From: a phage
Length of the DNA stretch: 64,000 nucleotides
Sequence record: NC_100372.1
Strand: one strand, 5' to 3'
The position numbers and the translations under genes are program-made. A model generated the notes under the pieces. It saw nothing but the letters and a program-made list of their open reading frames with translations. It was not told the origin of the DNA and searched no databases. Shown here piece by piece: positions 31,488-41,824 of this stretch (its first letter is position 1; each line of letters begins with the position of its first letter).

Positions 31488-31772
31488 ATGAGCAATGGTG
31501 TTAGCAATAGTGCTGCAGAGTTTAAAGTGATCTGTAAAGGAACTTATTGGATAGTGAAACAGAAAGTGTACCTATTCGGTTTCATACCGTTTTGGCAGAG
31601 ATTTTGCTGGGGAGCTAACGAGCTTAAGAGATACGCAACCAAGGCTATGGCACTTATTGGTATAGCTGAATACATTGCTGCCAGGGACAGAGAGGGTAAA
31701 ACTTGTTACTACACTGCTGACGAGATTCGTAACAGTGTTTACGTTCCACAACCGCCCGATGGAGACCGCTGA
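31488..31772 (+). CDS. Hypothetical protein
   Basis: 94-aa ORF with an AGGAG RBS. Confidence 0.4.
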   Translation: MSNGVSNSAAEFKVICKGTYWIVKQKVYLFGFIPFWQRFCWGANELKRYATKAMALIGIAEYIAARDREGKTCYYTADEIRNSVYVPQPPDGDR

Positions 31773-31996
31773 TGAAAGTTAAAGTTTTAGATTCAAGCTT
31801 CTATATTGGTCAGGAGCCCTTAGTGGGGAAAGTGTTTACCGCTATCCCTAACGAAGATTATCCTGACCTTCTAAAAATAAAAGGTGCAGATCTTATTGCC
31901 GCTGGTGCATCCCAGGAATGCTTTGACAGTCAGTGGACCTACAACTTTGCCCTAGGAGAGGATGTGGAGATAGTGGAGGACGATCATGAAGGTTAA
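31772..31996 (+). CDS. Small acidic protein, paralog family A
   Basis: MKVKVLDSSFYIGQEPLVGKV...IKGADLIAAGAS...EIVEDDHEG. Confidence 0.45.
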   Translation: MKVKVLDSSFYIGQEPLVGKVFTAIPNEDYPDLLKIKGADLIAAGASQECFDSQWTYNFALGEDVEIVEDDHEG

Positions 31997-32240
31997 AATT
32001 CTTGACTCTAACGTCTACTTGGGACAATCCTTCCTGAAAGGAAAGGTAGTACCTGCTGTATACTTCGAAGGGTTGCCGTGGGACGATCCTGTGCGGCAAA
32101 ATCACAGCCATGTAGGCCACAATGTGGTGTTCATCTTGGGATCAGACCTGATCGCGGCTGGTGCCCCGGAATATTATTTCGGAGAGGACTCGTATTATGC
32201 CTTTGGGGCAGGGTCAGATGCAGATATTTTAGAGCTGTGA
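31986..32240 (+). CDS. Small acidic protein, paralog family A
   Basis: MKVKILDSNVYLGQSFLKGKV...GSDLIAAGAP...ADILEL; adjacent tandem copy. Confidence 0.45.
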   Translation: MKVKILDSNVYLGQSFLKGKVVPAVYFEGLPWDDPVRQNHSHVGHNVVFILGSDLIAAGAPEYYFGEDSYYAFGAGSDADILEL

Positions 32241-32252
32241 TGGGGAACTGTT

Positions 32253-32651
32253 GTGAAAAATAAACTGTTCAAAGTTACAATGAAAATTCGCGGAGCTTGG
32301 AGCGTAAAGCAAGGGCGTATCCCCGAATTTGAGAAAGACTTCTACGTAGTCTCCACCTCGGAGGAGGCTGCATGCTGGCAGGCTGGCTATGCCTATGCAA
32401 GAACCTGGTACGAAGGATACCAGACTGGAGGCTATGACGGAGAAATTGTCAGTAAGGGTGTGGAAGAAATTAATGTGTTGACAAGTGAAAAAGTTTTTGT
32501 TATAGTGCATCCAGATTCCAGAGTGAAGCATTACTGGAATGCCAGAACAAAAACCTGGACACCGTTTGCAGATTCTGCTACACCACTTTTAAACCAGAAA
32601 GCTCTTGACTCTGCCCCAAGCTATGGGGTTGTTGAAGAAAAGATAAGCTGA
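32253..32651 (+). CDS. Hypothetical protein, paralog family B
   Basis: Paralogous to 34458-34853 (VHPDSRVKHYWNARTKTWTP versus MRHPHSNIAYYWDVLNNEWTP). Confidence 0.45.
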   Translation: MKNKLFKVTMKIRGAWSVKQGRIPEFEKDFYVVSTSEEAACWQAGYAYARTWYEGYQTGGYDGEIVSKGVEEINVLTSEKVFVIVHPDSRVKHYWNARTKTWTPFADSATPLLNQKALDSAPSYGVVEEKIS

Positions 32652-32668
32652 AATAGTGGGGTGCTTAC

Positions 32669-32959
32669 ATGATGGATTTAGTTTTGGACGCTGATAACAC
32701 CGGATCGTTTAAAAAAGATGGTGTAATAAGCATGGACCAATCCTGCGATGTCAAGATTGACTCAAAATGGACCTACAAGTTTGACGGTGAGATCTTCGCA
32801 AATGATGAGAAGGTCGTGGATGCTGTAGCCATTTTAAACGCTTTAGGGTATGACCCTGTGAACTCATTGATCAAGGATCCTGTTGAGTTTGCAGAGTATG
32901 TTCGTAAAATGGCAGATCTTGCAGTAGATATTTTAAAAACTATCGACAACAAGTTGTAA
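32669..32959 (+). CDS. Hypothetical protein
   Basis: 96-aa ORF. Confidence 0.4.
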   Translation: MMDLVLDADNTGSFKKDGVISMDQSCDVKIDSKWTYKFDGEIFANDEKVVDAVAILNALGYDPVNSLIKDPVEFAEYVRKMADLAVDILKTIDNKL

Positions 32960-33040
32960 AAACTGTTGACACAACGCTTCAGATTTAGTATCATTGTTTT
33001 CAAAGAGGGGTTGGTCCCTCTTCTTTAAAAGGAACACATT

Positions 33041-33358
33041 ATGCAAATTGAAATCACTGGCAACGTAGAGATCACTGAAGGTATGGTGTCTTTCATTTCC
33101 AACAAAATGTCCAAGCTGGAGCGTTTGCACCCCTCTGCCAACTATGCACGTGTGAGTGTAAAAGTTGAAAATGATCACCAGGAAGTTATGGCTTTCATTT
33201 TTGACACTTCTGGAAAAGAAGTTATCGCCAAAGCTAAAGGTAGTGATGCTTACGAGGCAACTGACCGTATGGTAGATGTTGCAGCACGCCAGTTGGCTAA
33301 GTGTGGTGGAAAGAAAGGTAAGGGAAAAGGCAAAGTAAAGATTGACTTTTTAGATTAA
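33041..33358 (+). CDS. hpf: Ribosome hibernation promoting factor / RaiA-family homolog
   Basis: MQIEITGNVEITEG...KLE...VSVKVE...AKGSDAYEATDRMVDVAARQLAK aligns with recalled E. coli HPF (MQLNITGNNVEITEA...KLEQ...KVE...AEGQDMYAAIDGLIDKLARQLTK); Lys/Gly-rich C-terminal tail. Confidence 0.7.
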   Translation: MQIEITGNVEITEGMVSFISNKMSKLERLHPSANYARVSVKVENDHQEVMAFIFDTSGKEVIAKAKGSDAYEATDRMVDVAARQLAKCGGKKGKGKGKVKIDFLD

Positions 33359-33495
33359 GGTGCTACAATGGGCACGATTAAGAAATTAATCCCAAATGTA
33401 GAGATTGCATGCTTTGAAATTATGTTTGCAATCGCAGTTGTAGTTAATGTGTTAGGTTACGGCTATTAATATCAAATAATTGAGGAGACCTCTAA

Positions 33496-33765
33496 ATGAA
33501 AATTAAATTATTCCAAACTGAGCTGGCAGACAAAAACTGTGGACTGGTTGAAGGCATGATCGTTGAAGCACAACCAGTTGACTACATGAAGGTGGTTCGT
33601 GATGCCCTGGGTGAAGGTTTTGATCTGATGGAGCCAGCTCTGCGAGAAGATGTCATCGAAATGGCTAAAAAGCACACACCGGAAGGTTTGGTAGTGTTTG
33701 TTGCTCCAGGTAATGGAGAGGAGTTGATTGTAACTCCGGATGTGTATGAGGTTGTAGAAGAGTAA
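33496..33765 (+). CDS. Small acidic protein, paralog family A
   Basis: MKIKLFQTEL...YEVVEE. Confidence 0.45.
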   Translation: MKIKLFQTELADKNCGLVEGMIVEAQPVDYMKVVRDALGEGFDLMEPALREDVIEMAKKHTPEGLVVFVAPGNGEELIVTPDVYEVVEE

Positions 33766-33857
33766 TCCTGCTTGGGTTGGAATACTTTCCTCGACAAGAA
33801 AGGTTTATAATTATTTGTGGGAAAGGAATCCCCATCTCTTACCAGAGGTGATACTAT

Positions 33858-34121
33858 ATGATTGTTTATTTTAAAACTTCAGGTGGATACCCTGATTCTC
33901 AAAGCTTGATTGGAAAAACGTGCACAGCATACTCACCTCTTGATGAGGAGGTAAGTGGTATCCTACGAGATATGTATCGGATTGATCCACAAGAAGCTTT
34001 TGATCAAAACCTTGTATTTGTCAAGGGATCAGACATAAAGTCTTTGGGGGCATTCCCTGAAGCAGATGATGATGCTGTTTATTCGTTTATGACACCTTTT
34101 GAAGCTATGGTTGTGGGGTAA
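33858..34121 (+). CDS. Hypothetical small acidic protein
   Basis: 87-aa ORF. Confidence 0.4.
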   Translation: MIVYFKTSGGYPDSQSLIGKTCTAYSPLDEEVSGILRDMYRIDPQEAFDQNLVFVKGSDIKSLGAFPEADDDAVYSFMTPFEAMVVG

Positions 34122-34125
34122 GAAT

Positions 34126-34458
34126 ATGAAAGTACGCTTTATTGGTGAAACAATTCCTGTGCATCTCCGGTCTCCTGAAGACTCTGCAGATCTTGCATCT
34201 CAAAAGGCGAGAGGGTATGATAAGAAAGTGATCTCAAGCAATGTAGAGCTTGAGGCCACCAGTCTGCCTGACCCAGCTGCATTCTTCAATCATTATGGCT
34301 ACTATTTTAGCAATCTGATGAATATTGGTGAGCTTGTGTTTATTAGTGGTGGAGAGATAGTTAGCAAGCTTGGTGGAGATCCGGATATCTTTCATGAAAC
34401 CTGTCCTTTTGCATTTGTGGTGGGTTCAGATGTGGAAGTTATTGAGGAGGTTCGGTAA
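34126..34458 (+). CDS. Hypothetical small acidic protein
   Basis: Start at MKVRFIGETIP; C-terminus EVIEEVR resembles family A. Confidence 0.4.
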   Translation: MKVRFIGETIPVHLRSPEDSADLASQKARGYDKKVISSNVELEATSLPDPAAFFNHYGYYFSNLMNIGELVFISGGEIVSKLGGDPDIFHETCPFAFVVGSDVEVIEEVR

Positions 34459-34853
34459 TGGTAAGTCTATACCGTGTTGAGTATAGCTCGGATACTGTAT
34501 ACAACGTAAGAAGCAAAGATCGCAGTGATAGAGTGCAAGAAATGTATGTTCTTGCAGATAGTCCGTTATCTGCAGCGTTCAAGGCAGGAGCTCTTGCATC
34601 TCGTTGGAAATTTGAGGGTGGATCTTTCTATGAAGAAACCCTCGAAGATTCTGTTGTTATTTCTTCTGTAGAGGTTTCAACCGACTACGAAGGGAAAAAG
34701 TTCGTAATGCGGCACCCACACAGCAACATTGCGTACTACTGGGATGTTCTGAACAATGAGTGGACCCCTGATCTTCAGAAGGCCACTGTTCTAACCCCAT
34801 TCCTGGCAGATAAGTTCCCACCAGAAGGTAATTTATCTGCACTGTTTCAGTAA
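34458..34853 (+). CDS. Hypothetical protein, paralog family B
   Basis: Paralogous to 32253-32651. Confidence 0.45.
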   Translation: MVSLYRVEYSSDTVYNVRSKDRSDRVQEMYVLADSPLSAAFKAGALASRWKFEGGSFYEETLEDSVVISSVEVSTDYEGKKFVMRHPHSNIAYYWDVLNNEWTPDLQKATVLTPFLADKFPPEGNLSALFQ

Positions 34854-34862
34854 TTTTATGCC

Positions 34863-34900
34863 ACACAGGTGTTGACAACACCAACCCTGTGTGCAATAAT
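34863..34900 (+). promoter_or_regulatory. Promoter with embedded inverted repeat (operator-like)
   Basis: TTGACA 34872-34877, 17-nt spacer, AATAAT 34895-34900; inverted repeat cacacagg (34863-34870) / cctgtgtg (34886-34893) brackets the -35. Confidence 0.45.
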
Positions 34901-34932
34901 ACCTTCATCTTAACAAGATAGGAGACCGACTG

Positions 34933-35190
34933 ATGAAGATTAAATTGAAAAACCTTGAAACGGCAGAGATTCAGGAAGGTGTTGATTTCCGTTCTAAAGA
35001 TGGAGACATCCTAGAGGCGAATGTCCCGACATATAAGTTGATTAAAGGTTTTGGCAACGTTCCGGAGGAGGATATTACAGACATTCTTATGATGTTGATC
35101 CTTGACGGGACTGTGTTTGTAGGTGAAGGTGAGAACGCTATTGCAATCCCGAGCCATTTTTATGAAGTAGTTGACGAAGAGGTGCTGTAA
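34933..35190 (+). CDS. Small acidic protein, paralog family A
   Basis: MKIKLKNLET...YEVVDEEVL. Confidence 0.45.
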   Translation: MKIKLKNLETAEIQEGVDFRSKDGDILEANVPTYKLIKGFGNVPEEDITDILMMLILDGTVFVGEGENAIAIPSHFYEVVDEEVL

Positions 35191-35541
35191 ATGAAAGTAG
35201 AGATCACAGGTTTTGATATGAATGCGGTTCCGGAAGATATTTTAGCTAAACTCCCGGAAGGTTTTAGTAACGGTGTTGTGGTGGATGCTGTCCCTCCTAC
35301 CAAAGACATTCTGCTGCAGTATGGTGTAGCAGAGGAGGATGTCGATAAAGTTCTTACAATGATGGCAATCGACCGTGTTGTCGTTGTTAAAGGTCTTGAA
35401 GGTTTTGATGACGATCCTCTGATTATTCGTGGTGATGACTATCGCATCATCGACAACGAAGGCCAAGAGTTCTACGAACCTTCTGCTGAAGATGTTCTTA
35501 ACTTACTACTGGAAGCAGGCACCGAAGAGGAGGAAGAATAA
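35191..35541 (+). CDS. Hypothetical small acidic protein
   Basis: MKVEITGFDM...; 116 aa. Confidence 0.4.
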   Translation: MKVEITGFDMNAVPEDILAKLPEGFSNGVVVDAVPPTKDILLQYGVAEEDVDKVLTMMAIDRVVVVKGLEGFDDDPLIIRGDDYRIIDNEGQEFYEPSAEDVLNLLLEAGTEEEEE

Positions 35542-35870
35542 TGAAAATTGATCCGTTACTGAAGGCTCGTGCAGAAAAAGCATACACTATCAAGCTGACC
35601 TCTCTGGTCCCTACTTGTCATCCGGATGTAGGTTGGCCTGAAGGCCTGGTAGAGGGGACTGTAACAGCTGCATACCTTCCTAACATCAAATACCTCATGG
35701 AGATCTTGGAGATGGATGAGGAAACTGCAGAACAGTTCCAGTTAGACATGAAACAAAGTGGGACTCTGGTTATTCACGGGTGGTATAATACTAAAGATGC
35801 AGAAGATCCTCTGGTAACTTCTAATCTGGCATATGAAATCTTAGGACCTTTGAACTTGGGGGAAGATTAA
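35541..35870 (+). CDS. Hypothetical protein
   Basis: 109-aa ORF, coupled. Confidence 0.4.
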   Translation: MKIDPLLKARAEKAYTIKLTSLVPTCHPDVGWPEGLVEGTVTAAYLPNIKYLMEILEMDEETAEQFQLDMKQSGTLVIHGWYNTKDAEDPLVTSNLAYEILGPLNLGED

Positions 35871-36157
35871 TGAAAGATTTGGTCAAGATCAAGATTAAAG
35901 ATACCAATGGAGAACTCAGCCATTTTGGAATTAACGATGGTGACGAGCTGGTCGCCCACCTGCCTACCAAGGAAGTTGTAAGCAAGGCTGTTGCCGGAGA
36001 AGAAGATGCAATGCAGGCTGCTGGTGTGGATGAAAACTATGTAGCCATGTGCATGTGCCGAGATCAGGTTGTTCTGTATAAAGCGTATCGACCAAATGGA
36101 GCACCTGAGTGGCTTGTTTTCCGACCCGAAGGGTATGAAATTTTAGAGACACTATGA
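35870..36157 (+). CDS. Hypothetical small acidic protein
   Basis: 95-aa ORF, coupled. Confidence 0.4.
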   Translation: MKDLVKIKIKDTNGELSHFGINDGDELVAHLPTKEVVSKAVAGEEDAMQAAGVDENYVAMCMCRDQVVLYKAYRPNGAPEWLVFRPEGYEILETL

Positions 36158-36246
36158 TAAATCTTGCCAAGGTTGCAATGGCACTGCTAATTATTTGCTG
36201 GATAGTGACCTTGGCACTATGTCTTGTATTTCATTAAGGGGGCTGT

Positions 36247-36510
36247 ATGAACATCTTGGTGTGGGTTGTGGCAGTGGCGTTTGTTGCGTGCCTCTCTTGT
36301 TGGGTTGCTGTGAGGATTTCTATAGCCACTCTTCGGAAATTAGGGTTCTCAGAGTGGGATATTAATATCCTTTCTTTTCGCAATGAGACAATCTCAGCCG
36401 CCCTGCTGTGCAAGAGGTTTAAGTGGGAACCTTGTGAGGTCATGAACTATCTAAGAACAGGGGATATTCCTGAGAGATTTAAAAAAGTTCTTGACGGCAA
36501 AGACAAATGA
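36247..36510 (+). CDS. Hypothetical protein with N-terminal TM helix
   Basis: MNILVWVVAVAFVACLSCWVAV; 87 aa. Confidence 0.35.
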   Translation: MNILVWVVAVAFVACLSCWVAVRISIATLRKLGFSEWDINILSFRNETISAALLCKRFKWEPCEVMNYLRTGDIPERFKKVLDGKDK

Positions 36511-38890: not shown

Positions 38891-40355
38891 CACACAAGTC
38901 TGCTTTGCAGGTTTAGCTGCTCAGCTAAGGTTCTGGAGTCACCTATAACATCTTCCAACTAAATTTCCTACCAACACAGTTACTTACCCACCACACATGA
39001 CTGTTTGCTTGTTTAGTGAGCAGTCATCCCTTGACATTCTTGCCTATCTTGATAAAATTAAGTTCTTCTCTTTTCTTTTACCGAGTAATTCGGGTTTTCT
39101 GTTCTCTTCGGTTTGAAGGGGTATGGAGATACACCTGAGTGAACAGGGTGAACAACCGAACCTTTAGCTATGGCATTAGCATGGCGAAGCGGACGGGTGA
39201 CGAAAGAGGGGCCGGAGGACACCAGTCACTGCCATATAGTATATGGGTGATAACCTGAAGAGTCTGAATAAGTGTTTAAGTACCAGTCAGAGGAAAAGGT
39301 GAATGGTAGCCGAAGGGGGAGGGGGGTTTCTTATATCTTTAATTTGTATACTTTATATACACTTGTAAACCAATTCAATTAGGATCTGTTTACCACACAA
39401 AGTGGATGGAGACAAATATCACCTATTAAACTTGAATTATTTATAGAAAATACCACAACACCGCTTAAGTCTTTGATTTTACACACAAATCTTACAAATA
39501 TCCTACCTCCATATTTAACATACTTGTAACATATTCCATATCCTACCTGCCTGATCAATTTACTCCCACCACATTCCCACATTTTCCCTGTCTGTACTAC
39601 CCCACCCCCGCCGGGAGTCCCGTCATATCTGGCTTTCCAGCAAATATCACACCCACAAATATCATCACCTGAAGAGGGTTTCATCCCATAATACCTGCCT
39701 TACCTGAAGAGCGCTTCATACACCACCTAAATTTTTTAATTGACCCCTCCCCGCCGCCGGAGAGGTTGGCTTTTCCCACACAGGCCTGAAGAGTCAGCCA
39801 GAAATATCTGAACAGGTCCAGTTATGCCCCGATTTTGTGCTTGTCCTACAGGAGTGCTGCCCTGTCAGGAGCCGGTAGCGACTGGAGTGCTGCCAGGCGG
39901 ACGGAATGGGAATACTTCTCATTTTTATAATAATTCTCAAATATCGAGGCAGTGAGGCAAATTAATAGGCCAGGCCGTTCACACAGTGGCACAACATTTG
40001 CAATCTATCTTGTGGGAGTGAATGAGAATACCTATCATTGTGAGAATGGTTATCATTACGGGCAATTTAACATAATACCTATTATGCGCACCACTGGCGA
40101 TACATACAGGGATTGATAACATGGGTTACTGTTTACGCACATAACAATTATATTTATTACTATTTGTGTGGGATATAGTTAGCAACCAATAGATTAGATA
40201 TTGACCTGCAGACTTCTGACCGTCCAGACGTCTAAACGCCCACACAACAAGGATTATACATACATTCCTGAATGTAAACAGGGCCGCAAAAAATGCTACC
40301 ATACCAGTTTGTAAATTTTTCATGCAGCACTTGACAAAGAGGAGAAAAACTTGTC

Positions 40356-40417
40356 TGACACAATGTGACAAAATTGCCACTTTTGACACTTTTACCTTTG
40401 ACACAATATGACACAAT
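40356..40417. repeat. Cluster of five TGACA(C/A)(A/T)(A/T)T repeats
   Basis: tgacacaat 40356, tgacaaaat 40366, tgacacttt 40384, tgacacaat 40399 and 40409; inside the ORF-free region. Confidence 0.6.
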
Positions 40418-40443
40418 AACGGCTGTTACTATTCCATATCTCA

Positions 40444-40503
40444 CTGTTTACGTATAGACTGTTTACGCCTGAATAGTTTACGCCCAAACTGTTTACACAG
40501 AGA
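40444..40503. repeat. Four tandem 15-bp repeats with core TGTTTACRC
   Basis: ctgtttacg 40444, ctgtttacg 40459, tagtttacg 40474, ctgtttaca 40489 (exact 15-bp period); extra copies at 40129, 40900 and 40943. Confidence 0.8.
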
Positions 40504-40510
40504 TGATAAG

Positions 40511-40750
40511 CCATGACATTCGTTTGCATGAAAACAATTAACAAGTTAATAATATATGACATAATATAAAAGCAGGGCAACTATTAGAAGATCTATAGTT
40601 GCCTTGCTTGTTATGTCATGATTAACTAAATACAAGGCAACTATGATCTGAATAATAGATTGCAGAAAAACTATCACGGGGGTGATTGTTACTGCTTTTA
40701 TATTATGTCGCGACTCCGTCGCGCCATGCCATTCGTTTGCATAGTTGCCT
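40511..40750. repeat. Nested dyad-symmetric element
   Basis: Perfect 18-bp inverted repeat gacataatataaaagcag (40558-40575) / ctgcttttatattatgtc (40692-40709); inner palindrome ggcaactat-N10-atagttgcc (40576-40603); GGCAACTAT again at 40636 and inverted at 40741; flanking direct repeat cattcgtttgcat (40517 and 40731); palindrome cgcgac-tcc-gtcgcg (40709-40723). Confidence 0.8.
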
Positions 40751-41357
40751 TATTGTTACAGGTAAAACAATTACATTATTAATTATTTCTTATCTTTCTC
40801 TTAGTCATCTAATGATTCCAGTCAGTATAGTAATGTACAGTAAACATTAGACGACTAAAGATTTCTCTGTGTATAATAACTTATCGTGACAATTTCGAAC
40901 TGTTTACGAAAAATGTTGACACCTGAGCTGATTTATGTTATGCAGTTTACACGAATAATTATTTTATGCAGGTATTGACTATTCCGTTATTCTGTGGTTG
41001 GAATAAATACTTTGCAGACTATAGAATGGCGTGCGTACGTGAATTCTGAGATCTGGCGGCTATAGTTATACTCGATTTTTCGCGTAGAACACGCTTTCGA
41101 TGCTGTGTAAGTGTATGACTTATAAAGATTTTTAGTTGTTGACAAGATATTGGAGATGTGCATCAGGTTAAAATTTGTGCAATAGCGGCATTACGTGCAC
41201 TTTTGGGAGAGAAAACGGGTAAAAATGGCCCTGCTACCACACAATGAAAGATTATGCAATGGTTATTTTCCATGTATATTTGTACAGTATGTGGGATTGA
41301 TGGCTAGTCAATTATTCCACTTGCCAGGTAGGGCCGTTTATGGTAGGAGAAGAGCAG

Positions 41358-41386
41358 ACAAAAAGAAAGGGGCCTTTAAGCCCCTT
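41358..41386 (-). terminator. Intrinsic terminator for the minus-strand block
   Basis: Plus-strand aaggggc-ctttaa-gcccctt; on the minus strand it is followed by tctttttgtc; sits just past the stop of 41405-41824. Confidence 0.65.
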
Positions 41387-41404
41387 GATAATTCAGTTAA
41401 GAAA

Positions 41405-41824
41405 TTATAATGATTCGTATATTTCAAAAATCCGATTTGCCAGGTCGTTACGGTAGCGGAATTTTTCATCGCGCTTGATCATTAAATCCTTATAGCCGTA
41501 CTCTTTAAGCACTTCATTAACTTTATAGCGGCATACCTGCATATTATCTTGAGCGTCACCAATAAACTTGTTGCTGTGGTGCATTGCTTTAATTTCTTCT
41601 TCCAGGACCAGGGCAACTACCCGGACCGGATCAAGCTGGTAGGCGGTAACATCTATGCGGCATTGTAGACGGCTTTTAACGTCTGCCACCGGATATACTG
41701 CAACCTCTTCCCCGTCAACATTGACAATAATTAGTTTACCATCGATTTCGAATCCTTTCGCCGCCGGACCGTGACAAAAAGCGTTATCAAAGCTATATGC
41801 CGGATTATCAGATTTAATGTTCAT
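41405..41824 (-). CDS. Hypothetical protein
   Basis: 139-aa ORF, last gene of the minus block. Confidence 0.45.
   Translation of the reverse strand: MNIKSDNPAYSFDNAFCHGPAAKGFEIDGKLIIVNVDGEEVAVYPVADVKSRLQCRIDVTAYQLDPVRVVALVLEEEIKAMHHSNKFIGDAQDNMQVCRYKVNEVLKEYGYKDLMIKRDEKFRYRNDLANRIFEIYESL

Follow-up and report, generated by a model that had tools for sequence, protein, structure and literature searches.

What might a phage want with a ribosome hibernation factor? The question is raised by a small gene in a 64,000-nucleotide stretch of phage DNA (sequence record NC_100372.1), which we refer to in its entirety as the window. The window comes from a Vequintavirus, an rV5-like myovirus of Escherichia coli, and is 99.9% identical to vB_EcoM-ECP26. 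A first-pass annotation, made from the letters alone, had proposed that the gene encodes a phage-borne protein of the HPF/RaiA family with a Lys/Gly-rich tail, that it is preceded by a promoter and a leader hairpin, and that its product could shut down or protect host ribosomes during takeover.

A predicted hibernation-factor fold in a phage protein

The gene, which we call hpf, and the two parts of its product lie on the window as follows.

33041..33358, + strand: hpf-like gene (ATG at 33041, TAA at 33356-33358; 105 amino acids plus stop)
33041..33304, + strand: S30AE/HPF core domain (residues 1-88, from the predicted model and structure matches)
33305..33355, + strand: Lys/Gly-rich C-terminal tail GGKKGKGKGKVKIDFLD (residues 89-105; net charge +4; residues 91-105 predicted disordered)

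The coordinates and the 105-residue protein sequence given by the annotation were reproduced, and the product corresponds to rV5 ORF144 (ABI79209) and to QDB73578 of ECP26. Its membership of the HPF/YfiA (S30AE) family, the central claim of the annotation, is as good as certain. The Pfam profile PF02482 (Ribosomal_S30AE) matches over positions 1-83 of 88 at 48.8 bits, where the gathering cutoff is 23.7 (E 1.2e-12), the superfamily model TIGR00741 (HPF/YfiA family) scores 47 bits, above its cutoff of 40.9, and the best sequence match in the PDB is to E. coli HPF chains (E ~1e-11, residues 1-89). Likeness to HPF, well beyond what chance would give, extends from residue 1 to around residue 90. 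The annotation had the alignment running along the whole protein, which holds for that span; the last 15 or so residues have no HPF counterpart.

An AlphaFold2 model built from an alignment of 29 sequences (mean pLDDT 84) gives the topology beta-alpha-beta-beta-beta-alpha (strands 2-7, 33-43, 46-55 and 60-67; helices 13-29 and 70-92). Confidence is high up to residue 80 (pLDDT 88-96), slips to 81 for residues 81-90 and falls below 50 for residues 91-105. The second helix, running from residue 70 to 92 in the model, extends beyond the core segment (1-88). The top 37 Foldseek matches of the model in the PDB are all HPF, YfiA, pY or RafH chains, and superposition on Vibrio cholerae HPF and ribosome-bound E. 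coli HPF (6h4n_x) gives target-normalised TM-scores of 0.90-0.93 with an rmsd of 1.0-1.1 Å.

Which branch of the family does it belong to? The phage protein is 40% identical to E. coli HPF and 22% identical to E. coli RaiA. Neither equivalog model reaches its cutoff: NF007780 (short HPF/YhbH) scores 55.4 bits against 125, while remaining the top NCBIfam model, and NF007654 (RaiA) scores 19.3 bits against 158. Because the first outscores the second by 55 bits to 19, we read the protein as HPF-like rather than RaiA-like; the RefSeq name for the phage gene, ribosome-associated translation inhibitor RaiA, is a family-level name and not a statement of orthology. Pfam finds no second domain in the 105 residues, and there is nothing that corresponds to the dimerisation domain of long HPFs (about 60 or more residues).

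Like E. coli HPF (YhbH; PDB 2rql, 4v8h, 6h4n), then, this is a short, single-domain protein, although it ends in KCGGKKGKGKGKVKIDFLD where the E. coli protein has KHKDKLKQH. It also differs in that the phage carries no RMF partner of its own, and in that its rV5 counterpart had no effect on 100S ribosomes in a published test. With E. coli RaiA (YfiA, protein Y) it shares the fold, the ribosomal site (for the phage protein by homology) and a C-terminal extension past the HPF core, whereas the RaiA tail is acidic (-4) and unrelated in sequence to the basic phage tail (+4).

What was already known

The same gene is present in 117 phage records, with 95-100% protein identity, under a variety of labels: sigma 54 modulation factor, RaiA, hpf and ribosome hibernation factor. 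In the rV5 record ORF144 is described as 'similar to Klebsiella oxytoca probable sigma(54) modulation protein'. Several public records label hpf 'ATP-dependent protease La type I'. The rV5 gene is the same gene as ours, its product 96% identical and equal in length, with the same tail, the same neighbours and an annotated promoter, P144; the two products are set apart by four residues, N21 in place of H, T56 in place of N and, at the C-terminus, LD in place of GE.

Mizuno et al. 2019 listed the HPF homologs of rV5, FV3 and their relatives, placed them among gammaproteobacterial sequences, and, using pBAD24, produced the rV5 protein in E. coli cells that were harvested at an OD600 of 1, the end of exponential growth (PMC6375957). 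By mass spectrometry, peptides of the rV5 protein were present in the crude extract and absent from 70S and 100S fractions purified at high-stringency salt; levels of 100S were unaltered by its expression (PMC6375957). The authors offered salt-induced dissociation and growth phase as possible causes of the negative result (PMC6375957). Mathieu et al. 2020 reported hpf in five further rV5-like phages, 'as already described' (PMC6969025). Our literature search for newer functional work on a phage HPF found none beyond these two papers, and a search for transcript, timing or phenotype data found none for any Vequintavirus.

How much weight should the negative carry? The annotation had suggested expression in E. 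coli followed by a look at ribosome association, with a lack of association counting against it; for a 96%-identical protein that experiment is in print, and taken literally its outcome goes against the annotation. The salt wash keeps it from being decisive. Washing at high salt is a standard way of stripping bound factors before HPF assays (PMC4889938), and a ribosome wash in 1 M ammonium acetate has been used elsewhere (PMC13152769). Since such washes routinely strip factors of this kind from ribosomes, the published negative lowers confidence in stable ribosome binding and does not exclude binding. The missing 100S effect is a separate matter. RMF is scarce at the end of exponential growth and a short HPF requires RMF, its partner in converting 90S particles to 100S dimers, to build 100S ribosomes, so unchanged 100S levels at an OD600 of 1 are uninformative about a short HPF.

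Gene, annotation, promoter and first functional test are thus all public, and the finding itself is already known. What we add are the lost contact residues, the invariant disordered tail, purifying selection, the want of a phage RMF, and a sister lineage.

Other large phages carry translation-machinery genes of cellular origin, among them bS21, bL12, bL9 and the HPF of Cronobacter phage GAP32, and in this the rV5-like gene resembles them (PMC6375957). Entry into ribosomes was demonstrated for phage bS21 and bL12 but not for rV5 HPF (PMC6375957).

A probably old acquisition

A phmmer search run exhaustively over 1.84 billion representative proteins (E up to 1e-3) returned 31 matches; a word-indexed search gave five close relatives. 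The second phmmer match, P0006, is a 1160-residue repeat protein matched in nine stretches, and we discarded it as spurious and unrelated to HPF. With just 31 matches, and the nearest non-phage relatives only 30-44% identical, we think on the strength of the sequences that the acquisition is old and the protein diverged, unlike the 'relatively recent' transfer suggested in 2019 (PMC6375957).

A sister lineage, found in metagenomes and read archives only (contigs of 124-137 kb; L002-L005, from Logan and ENA, measure 15-126 kb), encodes a 64%-identical HPF at the same position in the gene order. The phage genome collection holds no genome of this lineage, the best match there being 64%. Since the gene recurs across 117 records and at the same position in so distant a sister, it appears to be both old and maintained. 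Scanning IMG/VR with an alignment of the phage sequences alone yielded two further Vequintavirus contigs. The sole non-Vequintavirus match to hpf in the phage collection, a 'Salmonella' entry that might have been a third phage lineage, proved to be a 691-kb chromosomal contig of Salmonella houtenae (AGRM01000002.1) carrying the host's own hpf, 39.8% identical.

In PHROGs the Vequintavirus HPF clade forms its own family, phrog_12469, with the label 'unknown function'; a second phage S30AE family, phrog_8990, matches the window protein weakly (E 1e-6). No homolog of RMF was found in 50,697 phage records (tblastn, E up to 1). Eighteen records named 'Campylobacter phage' (MG065646-MG065690, L008 for example) are in fact Vequintaviruses about 94% identical to this phage; the record of one such 'Campylobacter phage', A135, is marked UNVERIFIED and is unannotated.

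Ribosome contacts lost and kept

To read the phage protein against the ribosome we mapped its residues onto the HPF contacts of Gram-negative hibernating ribosomes (bioRxiv 10.1101/2025.10.07.680626). Contacts kept from E. coli HPF are K25 (E. coli K26), R83, K87 and K91, which in the family touch 16S rRNA from helices 1 and 2, and E60, which pairs with H55 in the contact to uS9; the basic residues retained on the helices and surface are K22, K25, R28, R83, K87 and K91. Near-invariant residues of the family are likewise in place (G7, T12, K22, G58, D69, Y71 and D75). Set against these are the replacements K80V, K89G, R17V, H55F (a contact with uS9) and T53F, and three large-to-small changes on helix 2 (M70A, I74T and L81A). 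The slur16 hpf (L009:401-721) has a 3-nucleotide insertion that makes G7-N8-N9, a loop equal in length to that of E. coli HPF; a single N stands there in the window and in most other relatives.

The same contacts are replaced in both phage lineages: K80 by V or T, K89 by G or S, R17 by V, H55 by F and T53 by F. Shared departures from the consensus of the family lie at four contact positions (16, 54, 80 and 89) and four on helix 2 (70, 72, 74 and 81). Among aligned non-phage members, position 80 is K or R in 19 of 21 and position 89 in 17 of 21. Across six Vequintaviruses dN/dS for hpf is 0.02-0.14, which is strong purifying selection. Because the departures are common to both lineages, and because selection within Vequintavirus is of this strength, we take them as a selected, phage-specific signature and not as decay.

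Losing these contacts need not abolish binding to the ribosome. In Staphylococcus aureus HPF, binding was lost only when four basic residues on both helices were mutated jointly, and not at single sites (PMC4889938), and valine occurs naturally at position 80 in three of 26 aligned non-phage family members.

The tail is the other half of the signature. The annotation was right about its composition, and across six Vequintaviruses (dS up to 0.5) GGKKGKGKGKVKIDFLD is identical except for its last two residues. No tail like it occurs in the other 26 non-phage family representatives aligned. The sister lineage ends in KYSKSKGIDKRTAKWDY, different in sequence, likewise basic and of similar length. 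The phage tail exceeds the E. coli HPF C-terminus by 10 residues. RaiA has a longer tail than HPF; it extends in the direction of the RMF site, with which it overlaps (bioRxiv 10.1101/2025.10.07.680626), and RaiA blocks the formation of 100S dimers. By analogy, it is plausible that a Lys-rich tail emerging from helix 2 at that end touches rRNA near the RMF site.

Promoter, leader and transcript

The gap between the stop codon of the upstream gene (32959) and hpf is 81 nucleotides long and holds both a promoter and a hairpin.

32966..32994, + strand: sigma70-type promoter (TTGACA 32966-32971, 17-nucleotide spacer, TATCAT 32989-32994; 11 of 12 consensus matches)
33003..33022, + strand: leader hairpin (7-bp stem AAGAGGG 33003-33009 / CCCTCTT 33016-33022, loop GTTGGT; -10.4 kcal/mol)
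33029..33033, + strand: Shine-Dalgarno sequence AAGGA, 7 nucleotides upstream of the ATG, read from the sequence

The promoter is where the annotation had put its TTGACA, and the rV5 GenBank record marks a 'Sigma70-type promoter; P144' at the homologous position. Sites with 11 or more of 12 matches number 11 on the + strand and 12 on the - strand of the 64,000-nucleotide window, against about 0.9 per strand in shuffled sequence, an enrichment of some 12-fold. These near-consensus sites (23 versus about 1.8 in shuffles) agree in strand with the genes. It is because of this enrichment and strand coherence that we find the hpf promoter credible, and the pattern suggests that much of the small-ORF region is transcribed by unmodified host RNA polymerase. 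In the six phages compared, the -35 hexamer is unchanged and the -10 is TATCAT or TATTAT; the spacer is variable, with five changes in FV3. The sister lineage, as we read the alignment, retains TTGACA and its flanks, with a TGn-extended AATTAT 17 nucleotides downstream. Judged by these comparisons the promoter is conserved.

The hairpin is a different story. Placed by the annotation at about 33005-33025, and so approximately right, it begins 1-2 nucleotides past the inferred transcription start (~33001-33002) and lies within the top 3% of random 35-nucleotide windows for stability; the whole 65-nucleotide leader folds no better than shuffles (z = -0.23). In A135 and slur16 one pair is broken by a G-to-A change that nothing compensates. 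The sister lineage has no hairpin: a 25-nucleotide segment is missing, and the GAGGG found there is the Shine-Dalgarno sequence. On present alignments, then, the hairpin is not conserved. We considered and set aside two roles for it. As an intrinsic terminator it has a weak T-run (TCTTTAAAA), goes unreported by a terminator scan and sits downstream of the -10 hexamer. As a translational switch it fares no better: it excludes the Shine-Dalgarno sequence (33029-33033), shows no compensatory changes and is gone from the sister lineage. Hairpins at 5' ends may be a general feature of this phage's early transcripts, for which the evidence is marginal (Mann-Whitney p = 0.047, 23 promoters against background), and one might speculate that a 5'-end hairpin stabilises the mRNA.

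The terminator scan found no terminator-like site on the + strand from 32128 to 36276. On that account hpf is probably the first gene of a multi-gene early transcript and is itself also reached by read-through from upstream. The annotation had ventured that the gene may be separately regulated. What stands of this is a conserved promoter of its own; the unterminated stretch, and a hairpin that is clear of the Shine-Dalgarno sequence and weakened or absent in relatives, leave the idea weakly supported.

The surrounding genes

Immediately downstream lies a second small gene.

33368..33469, + strand: 33-amino acid hydrophobic small ORF MGTIKKLIPNVEIACFEIMFAIAVVVNVLGYGY (rV5 ORF145; phrog_15151, E 3.7e-25; conserved)

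It starts 10 nucleotides after hpf, has its own Shine-Dalgarno sequence (AAGGTG) and is probably co-transcribed with hpf. A second promoter-like site, at 33342-33369, overlaps its start codon. The next gene, 33496..33765, carries the label 'sigma 54 modulation factor' in ECP26-type records. We reject that label as an annotation error: the product has no Pfam match, is unlike the hpf product and belongs to a separate PHROG of unknown function. The same mislabelling of the gene after hpf occurs in MK883717, MN850627 and others.

The small ORFs around hpf, from 31772 to 36157, look like paralogous families. Those at 32253..32651 and 34458..34853 have the motif HP.S..(K/A).YW......WTP in common, 31772..31996 resembles 31986..32240, and the ORFs at 33496, 34933, 35191, 35541 and 35870 have acidic C-termini of the YEVVEE or YEIL type. 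None of the ten small ORFs tested around hpf has a Pfam match.

Further along, at 38900-41450, are some 2.5 kb with no ORF longer than 101 amino acids, where GC content drops to 0.35 and the cumulative GC skew turns nearby. The rV5 authors described the corresponding region as having 'no observable ORFs' (PMC3606486). Short repeats, direct and inverted, crowd this stretch (TGACACAATGTGACA, for one, occurs at both 40356 and 40399), which also has a palindrome at 40570-40609 and a perfect 18-nucleotide inverted repeat (40558 and 40692). Up to 39031 the near-consensus promoters are directed rightward; from 41902 they are directed leftward. We regard the region as a candidate replication origin or divergent control region. 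Within it, at 39031-39102, a strong promoter-like site (TTGACA-16-TAAAAT, with TG upstream) has a terminator-like hairpin (CCGAGTAATTCGG and TTTTCTGTT) no more than about 25 nucleotides further on, and no ORF; its product might be a very short transcript, or the element might work as an attenuator. Scans of the window for tRNAs and, at gathering threshold, for Rfam families found nothing, and that includes any Rfam family at 39031-39102.

What the protein may do

Family membership, the predicted fold, promoter conservation and purifying selection were computed here; function is where we must argue. Our best explanation, which we put forward tentatively as quite possible, is that this diverged short HPF has been adapted to the phage, is produced early and attaches to vacant 70S ribosomes at the decoding channel without building 100S ribosomes, sparing idle ribosomes. 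Host RNA polymerase would probably transcribe hpf early from the promoter at 32966..32994. Its core domain, by homology to E. coli HPF, would occupy the channel that separates the head of a vacant ribosome's 30S subunit from its body, covering the A and P sites. We infer that it would act on 70S monomers and not through 100S dimers, because the phage has no RMF, contact residues have been lost and an invariant, Lys-rich disordered tail has been added. HPF is able to occupy 70S ribosomes without RMF (bioRxiv 10.1101/2025.10.07.680626); host RMF could still serve the phage protein. The tail may add contacts to rRNA. The benefit would most likely be that idle host ribosomes are kept intact and reusable, shielded from RNases for instance, in slow-growing or starved gut E. 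coli. That E. coli hibernation factors block RNases on ribosomes offers an analogy for such a protective role (PMC7913689). Against this explanation stand the absence of the rV5 protein from 70S and 100S fractions, the replacement of contacts in both lineages, and the shortfall of 55 bits against 125 in the short-HPF equivalog model.

The site itself invites a more aggressive reading. Because the site of HPF/YfiA overlaps the binding sites of tRNA and mRNA, the protein might serve host shut-off as an early, general inhibitor of translation, blocking the A and P sites of free ribosomes and damping host synthesis or delaying initiation during takeover. The strong sigma70 promoter is of the early type, and a basic tail taking the direction of the RaiA tail could reach the mRNA channel or the anti-Shine-Dalgarno region. 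However, phage mRNAs share those ribosomes and have ordinary Shine-Dalgarno sequences (PMC3606486), with no sign of how phage messages would be spared, and Mizuno et al. found normal ribosome profiles in expressing cells and described no toxicity (PMC6375957); we consider shut-off unlikely. The tail can also be turned to the opposite end. Being 10 residues longer than that of E. coli HPF, it might hinder RMF while the core takes the HPF/RaiA site, so that infected stationary-phase cells would be left without 100S ribosomes and with a weakly bound factor that is easily displaced. The longer RaiA tail does overlap the RMF site and RaiA does block dimers; the phage encodes no RMF, and both the loss of K80 and K89 and the failure to survive a salt wash fit weak, reversible binding. 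Yet the phage tail bears no sequence likeness to the RaiA tail and differs from it in the sign of its charge (+4 against -4), similarity to RaiA stands at only 22% overall, and the published cells, harvested at an OD600 of 1, say little about antagonism of 100S formation (PMC6375957). Such anti-hibernation competition strikes us as improbable.

Or has the protein left the ribosome altogether, keeping the HPF fold for some other RNA or protein target? The rV5 protein was expressed and still absent from ribosome fractions (PMC6375957), the nearest cellular relatives are 30-44% identical, and the lineages share conserved departures at positions 16, 54, 80 and 89 and at 70, 72, 74 and 81. But most of the basic surface is retained (K22, K25, R28, R83, K87 and K91), and the added Lys-rich tail is the type of peptide that binds rRNA. 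Nor are the replacements a strong argument when S. aureus HPF gave up binding only with four basic residues mutated together (PMC4889938) and V80 is natural in three of 26 non-phage members, and the salt wash would explain the negative ribosome result. We think repurposing quite doubtful.

The sparing of idle ribosomes by a diverged short HPF can be taken a step further, into territory where we would wager little. The protein may have become a viral specialist, as opposed to a copy borrowed from a host, its tail replacing RMF or the lost helix 2 lysines so that it acts alone on 70S ribosomes, either as a reversible parking factor, against host nucleases or ribosome-targeting defence toxins, or as a decoy that keeps starved hosts from forming 100S dimers.

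Dormant ribosomes and the Vequintaviruses

What remains of value in this gene is its function during infection and its phage-specific sequence signature. The lost contact lysines, the invariant Lys/Gly tail and the missing RMF partner together suggest mutants to make and assays to run. Little is understood of how phages handle dormant ribosomes when the host is starved, and E. coli in the gut is for much of the time slow-growing or non-growing. A hibernation-factor homolog found in nearly every Vequintavirus, and held there by strong purifying selection, is a handle on that question. If the protein does prove to be a parking factor or a decoy, it would be the first demonstrated case of a virus manipulating bacterial ribosome hibernation.
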